From the IMG/VR virus record IMGVR_UViG_2681813236_000002: a stretch of 19,149 nt of DNA. One strand, 5' to 3'. Positions 3,001 through 6,000 of this stretch are shown here, in pieces. The stretch is from a virus. Lineage: Duplodnaviria > Heunggongvirae > Uroviricota > Caudoviricetes. The first letter of the stretch is position 1, and each line of letters starts with the position of its first letter. A program made the position numbers.

Positions 3001-6000
3001 AACAGCTTAAAACCATTCAGAAGACGCCAGACGGTACCGTCCATAATGGCAATATTCACAAGACCGCTGGCCTGGTCGCAGTAGAGGTCAATATCATGTG
3101 TAGGATCGAACGTGTCACGATCCTGTTTTGACCACTCCTTACCACTACCCTGAGTGATGTTATTCTTCGTCGACCTGCCAAAATCGACCTCAATTTTCTC
3201 GAACTGGTCTCCTTCCATGGTGTATTTGCCATACAACACAGCATTTACCGCCTGCATTTCTTCCACCTGGACAATCGCGTGCTCTTCCTGTTTGAGGTTA
3301 TCGGTAATGATACGCAGACGGCGGTAAGCCGGATCATTCAGTTGAGATGGATCTTCACCAGGAAGGCGCTCAACCGCCTGCTGGTAATTAAATTCGTGTT
3401 TCGGCTTGACGTAGCCCGGACGCAACACGCGGGTTTCACCACCACGATGACGCAGCACTTTTCCTTCAACAACCGGGGAGACATAGGCCGCCACCGGCGT
3501 TTTTCCGGTAATTTTGTCCAGCATCACCTCTTCGGTATGGAAATTCACCGTACGGCGGAAAAACAGCTCCAGAAACAGCGCACGAAATTTAACTTTTTGT
3601 TCGGTATAACCGAGTAACTGGCGGGTCGTAAACAATCCCATAAATCAGTTCCTTTCATTCAGAAATCAGTCAGGCCACCGCGGTGGCCTGATAACGTGTT
3701 ACGGCAGCGCCGCGTGACTCAGGGCACTGCCAGCAAAGGCGTTGGCCTTTTTGTGTTCATCCACACTTTCAGGCCAGTGGATTGCCTCCGTCGCAAAGGT
3801 TCCCGACTTGTAATACGTCAGCGCCGTCTCTGTGCCGTCAAGCGGCAGTACCAGTATGCCAACCGCACTACCGGCTTTCTGTCCGTCCCAGACCACCAGT
3901 TTCCCGGTGGCTTCATCCAGCATCAGGGGCGTCAGTGCCGGTGTTGGCGAGGAAATCCCGCTGCTGCCTGTGGCGGTATGAGCCGGATCATTACCGGCAA
4001 AAATACGTACTTCCGCACGCTGTTCAGTGATGGTTTTCGTCACCATATTGTAAAAACCTCCTATTGATGGTCAGCACTGGCTTCATGGCATGGCCATGAG
4101 CATTTTCACGTCCGCATCACCATCTGCTGACGTCTGTGGCACGCCACCCTGTACCGCTGCCGGTGAATGGTTCGCCATGAAATGTTCAAACATGGCGGTT
4201 GTGGATGCAGAGACCGGTTCTGCCTTACCTGATCCCGCAGCCAGCACAGCCCGGGCGCTCTCCACAGTCATTCCCGGGCAGGCAGCCAGCTGTTCAGCCT
4301 GCACCTCAGCCCCTTTTGCCTCATCCAGTGCCATGATCTGATCACGGAGTGATGGTCCGGCATCCGCCTGCGGTGAAGCAGCCAGGATCTGGCGGGCTTT
4401 TTCCACCGTCATCTCCGGCATCGCCGCCAGTGTTGCCGCCAGTTGTTCACGACCGTTCGCTTCTTCACACGCCATAATGCGATCGGCTTCACTCTGCGTG
4501 GATGCCACCGGCTGCTGCGGTGCCGCCGCGGCCAGAATCGCCCGGGCCTGTTCAACGCTCATGCCCTGTTGTCCTGCCAGCATCGTGGCAAGCTGTTCAC
4601 GTCCTTTCGCTTCCTGGCATGTCAGGATCCCCATCACTCGCTGGTTCTCCTGCGCGGCGGCTTCCGTTGCAGTTAATTGCGGCATAGTGCCTCCTCTGAC
4701 ATTACTGTTCAGCGCCGTGGCCATCACACTGATGGCATCCGACGCATTGATTAATTCATCCGCCAGCCCGGCCTCAATGCCGGACTGACCTTCAAAAACG
4801 GCGGCCTCTGTTCCCGTGACTGCATCAACAGACAGACCGGTAAACATCGCCACTTTTTCGGCAAACATCCGGCGCGCCGCATCAATCCGCTGCTGCATGT
4901 CCTGGCGAACCTCTGCCGGCAACGCTTCAAACTGATTGCCATCCACCTTGTGCGCCCCTGAGTAAATCAGCGTGATATCCACACCGGCCTGCGCCAGATG
5001 ACCGGCATAGCTGACATGGCTCATCATCACGCCAATGGAACCGATACGGGATGTCTGGGTAACCAGCCGTCGGGAGCAGGCCGACGCCAGCAGCATGGCT
5101 GCAGAACAGGCCGTGTCATTGCACAGTGCCCAGACCGGCTTCTGCTGACGGAGGCGGTAAATCATGTCAGCGCAGTCAAACGCGCCGGCGGCCTGCCCGC
5201 CCGGACTGTCAATGTCCAGCAGTACGCCCCGCACCTGGCTATCCGCCATTGCCTGCTGAAGACAGGCGACAATACCGTCATAGCCTGTCATTCCGGAAAA
5301 TGGCCGCATACCACCCAGCCGGTGCACCAGCGTGCCGGTCACCGGTAGTACAGCAATACCGTTCACCACCCTGTAAACACGGGCAGGTCGTTTACCTCCG
5401 GCCATGTACTCGTCCGTTTCAGCCAGCATTCCGGGAGCATCAAACTGTACCTGCTGTTGTGGTACCGAAAGACTTGCTGCCCCCATCTCGCGCCCGAGCG
5501 CGCAAAAGAAAACCCGCGCATAGGCGGGCTCCAGAAGCAGCGGTTCATTGAATGCTGCGGCAATAATGTGTGAAAGATTACGTCTCACGTGGTGTTGTCT
5601 CCTCTTCCGGCCTGCGACTCTCCGCTATCTGCTGCTGATACGCCTGCGCTATCCACACCGGACGTGAGAGTCCGGCTTTTTGCCGCTCAGCAGATTCCCT
5701 GACCTGCTGGCGGAAAATGTCCTGATAATCCTCGCCCATCAGCGCCAGCTCTTTCTCATACGTGCTCAGTCCGGCCTCAATGCGCATCACTGATTCCTGG
5801 ACTTCCTTGAGCCCGTCAATGGCCATTCTTCCGGCACCAATCCACTCTGCCCGTGACCAGGCTGATCGCGCCTGATAAAAATCAAAACGTGCCCGTGGCG
5901 GACGAATAATCCCCCGAAGAAGTGCCTCTTCCAGCCAGCAGGAAAACATCTGCGTGGCCAGCCGGGCCGCAATAAATTTTCGCCGCCCCATAAAATAGCG

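Follow-up and report, generated by a model that had tools for sequence, protein, structure and literature searches.

In this work, a 501-residue protein encoded on the minus strand of a 19,149-nt stretch of Caudoviricetes DNA (IMG/VR record IMGVR_UViG_2681813236_000002, hereafter the window) was found to carry three tandem, diverged copies of a short module between its protease domain and its C-terminal tail. We consider, with a probability of about four in five, that this is the triplicated lambda-type module of phage 21 genes 5 and 6, with a predicted fold and a probable scaffold role.

A C/Nu3-type gene pair with three modules

The minus strand of the window contains a lambda-like head block of terminase, portal, the 501-aa ORF, decoration protein, and major capsid protein. 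The portal gene lies at 5578..7170, the decoration (D-like) gene at 3699..4046, and the major capsid (E-like) gene at 2613..3641, all on the minus strand, and the C/Nu3 gene pair is placed between the portal and the decoration/major capsid genes, as in the lambda type. The longer member of the pair (4083..5588, minus strand, GTG start) is gene 5 of the phage 21 type, a lambda C homologue in which an S49 prohead protease and a scaffold domain are fused; it is an annotated CDS in both M81255.1 and OL657228.1. Its product matched the head maturation protease family phrog_53 (PHROG) end to end with an E-value of 4.8e-228, and Peptidase_S49 (PF01343, Pfam) over aa 146-293 with an E-value of 1.5e-34. 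The match to TIGR00706 (SppA_dom, E 3.4e-31) was under the curated cut-off, as expected in phage members. Overall identity to lambda C was 53%. The Pfam match and the alignment to lambda C place the S49 peptidase domain at 4710..5153 (minus strand), and Ser162 (C161-S162-A163) aligns with Ser166 of lambda C in an invariant column. The lambda residue is said to have been identified as catalytic by Medina et al. in 2010.

The shorter member, gene 6 (the lambda Nu3 homologue), is nested in frame at 4083..4685 (minus strand) and encodes 200 aa starting with MPQLTATE; it is annotated as gp6 in M81255.1 and as scaffolding protein in OL657228.1. Its ATG (4685) aligns with the Met that opens lambda Nu3 (MTKETQ), and a ribosome-binding site, GGAGG (4690..4694, minus strand), lies 5 nt 5' of it and is also annotated in both phage 21 records. 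From this sequence context, the internal in-frame start is predicted to yield the C-terminal part of the protein as a separate scaffolding protein. The nested product begins with a 15-aa spacer, MPQLTATEAAAQENQ (4641..4685, minus strand), which is followed by the modules and by a conserved C-terminal tail (aa 452-501; 4086..4235, minus strand) of the form F-x-x-F-M ... L-(L/M)-x-x-P, homologous to lambda LDRLM...LLNTPV. Four ORFs of 61-103 aa on the plus strand (4090..4341, 4443..4676, 4477..4788, and 4502..4687) run antisense to the scaffold region; over 4083-4700, these are typical of antisense frames in GC-rich coding DNA.

By translation of 4083..5588 (minus strand), the three peptides quoted in the preliminary description were all found, and the repeat span given there, 4236-4640, was exact. 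Module 1 comprises aa 317-354 (4527..4640), module 2 aa 370-404 (4377..4481), and module 3 aa 417-451 (4236..4340), all on the minus strand and all inside the nested Nu3-like gene, as had been claimed. The modules are ~35-38 residues long, or ~40 in round terms. The start-to-start distances are 53 and 47 aa, which agrees with the period of about 47-53 residues noted before, and the best register gives 50 and 47. Module 3 is the most diverged copy, with EAKGAE in place of EAKGRE. Each copy was matched individually by PHROG scaffold and capsid-assembly families; PHROG gave the sole family matches for the 200-aa product, for which NCBIfam returned 0 families, and Pfam on aa 310-460 at E <= 1 returned nothing beyond noise.

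Peptide identity between the units is 54-60%, and the unit-versus-unit local BLOSUM62 scores of 82-101 compare with a shuffle mean of ~25 (sd ~5), which corresponds to z values of 11.6-15.5. Similarity at this level could in principle arise by chance, with no true duplication, from Ala/Glu/Leu-rich helical sequence of low complexity; the region is indeed alanine-rich, and Tandem Repeats Finder over 3900-5700 reported no tandem repeat in the DNA. The shuffle test refutes this explanation, as the observed score was reached by 0 of 2000 composition-preserving shuffles (z > 11). Moreover, a module HMM scores each copy in the window at 75-83 bits, the same module is present in 3445 protein clusters, and we regard chance similarity as practically eliminated.

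At the DNA level, the repeat search returned solely a 12-nt seed, GCCAGYTGTTCA, at a spacing of 153/150 nt. The repeat is too diverged in nucleotides and was therefore judged as protein. Nucleotide identity between the units is 58-64%, with 66-80% at codon positions 1 and 2 and 31-43% at position 3. The recurring seed would also fit a repeat of some DNA-level element, such as regulator-binding sites or an antisense promoter, of which the protein repeat would be a by-product, and OL657228.1 lists two TTGYN6TTGY matches as 'CII binding site' at window 4433-4446 and 4667-4680 on the plus strand. These matches are consistent with chance, as the whole window contains 3 occurrences of the pattern and 4.2 would be expected at random. 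Furthermore, third codon positions are at random level and positions 1 and 2 are conserved, and the conservation across genera is at the amino-acid level. A DNA element is highly improbable as the origin of the repeat. By position, one of the two CII-box matches falls in module 2 and the other a few bases inside the start codon of the nested gene.

Phage 21 annotation and the range of copy number

Window 3600-5700 has a nucleotide identity of 99.1-99.2% with coliphage 21 and several phages closely related to it, and window 1-9993 matches phage 21 positions 1-9993. The GenBank record M81255.1, a 1990s deposition of the phage 21 head operon, places gene 5 at window 4083-5588 and gene 6 with its ribosome-binding site at 4083-4685. 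Three repeat_region features are given in gene 6, namely 'Tri1 box' (window 4515-4618), 'Tri box' (4368-4478), and 'Tri3 box' (4224-4337), with the remark 'function unknown; putative'. The paper behind this record we take to be Smith and Feiss (Gene 126:1-7, 1993). The boxes overlap modules 1, 2, and 3 by 92-102 nt each, in a slightly shifted register. The three modules are the Tri1/Tri2/Tri3 boxes of phage 21 genes 5 and 6 and are already known; with this annotation and the identity of 99.1-99.2%, the preliminary description correctly rediscovered something that was already on record. According to the preliminary description, three copies in lambda C as well would have made the triplication unremarkable. 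Lambda C has one copy, as was also claimed there and as translation from NC_001416 with alignment and module count confirmed, and the triplication is unremarkable for a different reason, because it is annotated already. In the set of papers covered by our literature search, there was no account of the phage 21 scaffold, no first description of the Tri boxes, and none of repeats in Nu3-type scaffolds.

In OL657228.1 (PMC9119081), the complete genome of phage 21, the same two products are annotated as capsid protease/scaffolding protein and scaffolding protein. By comparing the window with phage 21 gp5/gp6, which are named head-tail preconnector proteins, the nested 501-aa and 200-aa products, the ribosome-binding site, and the three repeats are the same; the differences are a few point changes and the prophage-type or circularly permuted form of the window. 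The phage 21 match stops at about window 9993, at position 1 of that linear genome, which points to a cos end near this position. From ~10000 to 19149, the window holds different, late-region DNA that matches other lambdoid and Stx-type phages and does not match phage 21 contiguously. The window therefore represents either a prophage or a mosaic, circularly permuted phage related to phage 21. Of 5426 complete E. coli genomes, 1870 contain the 618-bp scaffold region; many of them, O157:H7 strains included, have it in more than one prophage. The triplication has been in the public phage 21 annotation for decades and is carried by roughly one in three complete E. coli genomes, and it has little discovery value in itself. 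What this work adds in descriptive terms is the series from one to four copies, its trade-off against the length of the spacer, a predicted fold, and the lack of a domain model or structure for the module.

The copy-number survey drew on 80 viral contigs plus 80 loci of species-representative genomes; it was anchored on the protease domain, which keeps the retrieval free of copy-number bias, and modules were counted by HMM. One copy is the rule, and the range is 1-4. Apart from Buttiauxella L089, every homologue whose protease identity is <=61% has one copy; these are about 58 distinct proteins of 420-462 aa, and their hosts include Enterobacter, Kluyvera, Vibrio, Pseudomonas, and Marinobacter. 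Buttiauxella L089 (450-451 aa) has two copies with weak module scores. Three copies occur in the phage 21 type (501 aa), in Trabulsiella (80% identity, 503 aa), and in Providencia (67%, 493 aa), and four copies occur in a clade at 72-75% identity (L073-L083, 538 aa). The profile search that gave the 3445 clusters (50% identity) covered 1.84 billion representative proteins at E <= 1e-3; among 138 of its best matches, a ranking that favours multi-copy proteins, there are 125 one-copy, 11 two-copy, and 2 three-copy proteins. Most multi-copy forms belong to a single enterobacterial clade; outside it there are a few independent two-copy cases, some of which are clearly separate events in unrelated lineages. 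The spacer has 13-20 aa in multi-copy forms versus a median of 50 aa in one-copy forms, and the multi-copy forms have lost ~35 residues of disordered spacer.

Two further groups of sequences were seen in these searches. Stand-alone proteins of 68-98 aa (P0106, P0109, P0111-P0117) contain little beyond one module near the N-terminus; they could be scaffold-like proteins of very small size, or else nested genes that were called wrongly. Lambda-type C genes on short contigs (L097, L099-L102, L104, L106-L110, L123-L126, L140, L152) come from assemblies of unrelated organisms, namely Kitasatospora, Neobacillus, Oceanobacillus, Leeuwenhoekiella, Shewanella, Pseudomonas, an Akkermansia MAG, Enterococcus, and others. 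Most of them equal lambda C in identity, length, and module score, and several contig names give a coverage of sub-1x to ~1x; these genes look like lambda DNA contamination of the assemblies and not like real prophages.

The copies are positionally orthologous across genera, with identities of 67-78% between first modules, 60-67% between second modules, and 48-58% between third modules, and therefore the triplication predates the split of these lineages. Synonymous sites between the copies are saturated, the third-position identity being essentially random. The duplication is thus old, and selection on the protein has preserved the copies. Besides these, the 21 type has recent in-frame variants at 96-99% identity (at least 98% for L029 and L044). 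L029 (451 aa) has a hybrid of modules 1 and 2 with the crossover within GREQLA and 50 aa lost, L044 (482 aa) has a 19-aa in-frame deletion inside module 2, and L053 (439 aa) ends prematurely in module 3. As L029 and L044 are natural variants with 2 or ~2.5 copies, three copies may not be strictly required.

Predicted fold and proposed role of the module

The AlphaFold model of isolated module 1, from an alignment of 12 sequences, has a pLDDT of 88 and a pTM of 0.64; within the 50-aa unit that was modelled, residues 2-12, 21-28, and 35-44 form three helices. A simple helix-turn-helix had been suggested for the repeat before, and the prediction gave a three-helix bundle instead. In the model of the whole 200-aa Nu3-like protein, which like the other models is based on a shallow alignment (12-17 sequences), the pLDDT is ~80 in the modules but falls to 44-65 in the linkers and over most of the tail, where two further helices are predicted at Nu3 residues 160-173 and 191-196. 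The pTM of this model is 0.28, which means that there is no fixed arrangement between the modules. Each module is thus predicted to be a separate three-helix bundle on flexible Pro/Ala/Ser-rich linkers. A Foldseek search with the predicted module gave no significant match, and the module has no solved relative and no matching Pfam or NCBIfam model. Designed toroid repeat proteins appeared as sequence matches in the PDB and were rejected as spurious, the scores being sums of weak similarities over a 14-residue helical stretch. What is labelled 'function unknown' in GenBank would be the folded core of lambda-type scaffolds, a module with neither structure nor domain model.

In lambda, Nu3 is the scaffold; self-association, Nu3-C and Nu3-E interactions, and degradation by C have been described, and Nu3 becomes part of the proheads, from which the protease removes it (PMC3224144). 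By analogy with lambda Nu3 and gpC, it is likely that the modules are protein-interaction units of the transient scaffold core. The single ~40-residue module of lambda-type C/Nu3, which sits between the spacer after the protease domain and the conserved C-terminal tail, underwent tandem triplication in a forerunner of the phage 21 lineage. The modules would be made twice, once in free form as gp6 and once at the C-terminal end of the protease gp5, and they would target the protease into the prohead, where it would be co-assembled because it shares them with gp6. There, the folded modules may bind one another and/or the interior of the capsid shell, and the protease would degrade them ahead of DNA packaging. 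Three copies would give a bulkier and more multivalent scaffold, replacing the long disordered spacer.

The role of the individual module could also be more specific, in that each module would be a capsid-protein-binding unit and one scaffold chain would bridge several capsid subunits, instead of modules for self-association or spacing with a binding tail. The turn motif E-A-K-G-R-E is nearly invariant over very diverse modules, beyond what a hydrophobic core needs, and lambda Nu3 and E interact in the yeast two-hybrid assay (PMC3224144), both of which fit capsid binding by the modules. The Arg of this motif is missing from phage 21 module 3, however, and the C-terminal tail is likewise conserved between lambda and the four-copy forms. 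In the P22, phi29, and 80alpha scaffolds, the extreme C-terminus is the usual coat-binding element, and by analogy the tail would be the coat binder here. We consider capsid binding by every module possible but somewhat unlikely, and we prefer the broader role of a protein-interaction unit in the scaffold core.

Variation of copy number between one and four, together with the recent in-frame deletions, might instead be driven by escape from host defence that senses scaffold domains, and not by the needs of assembly. Scaffold domains of prohead proteases are known to trigger type I CBASS, and escape mutations arise there in T1-like phages (bioRxiv 10.1101/2023.05.21.541620). On the other hand, the old, cross-genus positional conservation of the copies argues for a stable constraint and not for rapid arms-race turnover, and no defence link is known for this scaffold family. 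Defence escape is thus quite improbable as the driving force. A further speculation, which we consider unlikely, is that this three-helix module of ~40 residues represents a scaffold domain so far missing from the catalogues, whose copy number of 1-4 would be an evolvable dial, in which folded modules are traded for disordered spacer and which sets the valency and size of the scaffold. It would mean that the natural 1-, 2-, 3-, and 4-copy variants are a ready-made series on scaffold multivalency versus T=7 capsid assembly. Independently of this, the natural series of copy numbers (1, 2, ~2.5, 3, and 4) and its inverse relation to the spacer would be a convenient handle on lambda-like scaffolds.

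Comparison with lambda and related scaffolds

Among folds of known structure, staphylococcal protein A domains and UBA/CUE domains resemble the predicted module in shape alone, with 8-18% identity and a generic fold, and the module was found to have no sequence or fold similarity to the coat-binding domain of the P22 scaffold, a C-terminal helix-turn-helix. A multi-copy comparison is with the four-copy relatives and their 538-aa C homologues, which have the same architecture and tail and a protease domain 72-75% identical to that of the window protein; they differ by one extra module. Their copies 2-4 are mutually 77-79% identical, which suggests a younger duplication or gene conversion in this clade.

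Lambda and the window share the gene order portal, C/Nu3, D-like, and E-like, and the window proteins are 61% (protease domain), 62% (capsid protein), and 61% (portal) identical to those of lambda. Thus, divergence is even across the head genes, which differ in architecture by the number of modules alone. The module and the C-terminal tail are homologous in both, and the nested start is at the aligned Met. The sequence 'ALDRLM' after the lambda module was considered as a vestigial second copy and rejected, as it aligns with the conserved tail motif F-x-x-F-M, which with L-L/M-x-x-P follows the last module in all forms. Lambda has one module behind a low-complexity spacer of 51 aa, whereas the window protein has three behind 15 aa, and Nu3 has 131 aa in lambda versus 200 aa here. 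By comparing the segments of the window protein and lambda C, the part before the nested start has 301 and 308 aa (-7), the spacer 15 and 51 aa (-36), the module region 135 and 38 aa (+97), and the C-terminal tail 50 and 42 aa (+8), which gives totals of 501 and 439 aa (+62). The scaffold domain is therefore expanded, as had been proposed, with 97 more residues in the module region. The triplication accounts for the greater length of the window protein as a net effect, because the gain of 97 residues in the modules and 8 in the tail is partly offset by 36 fewer in the spacer and 7 fewer before the nested start.
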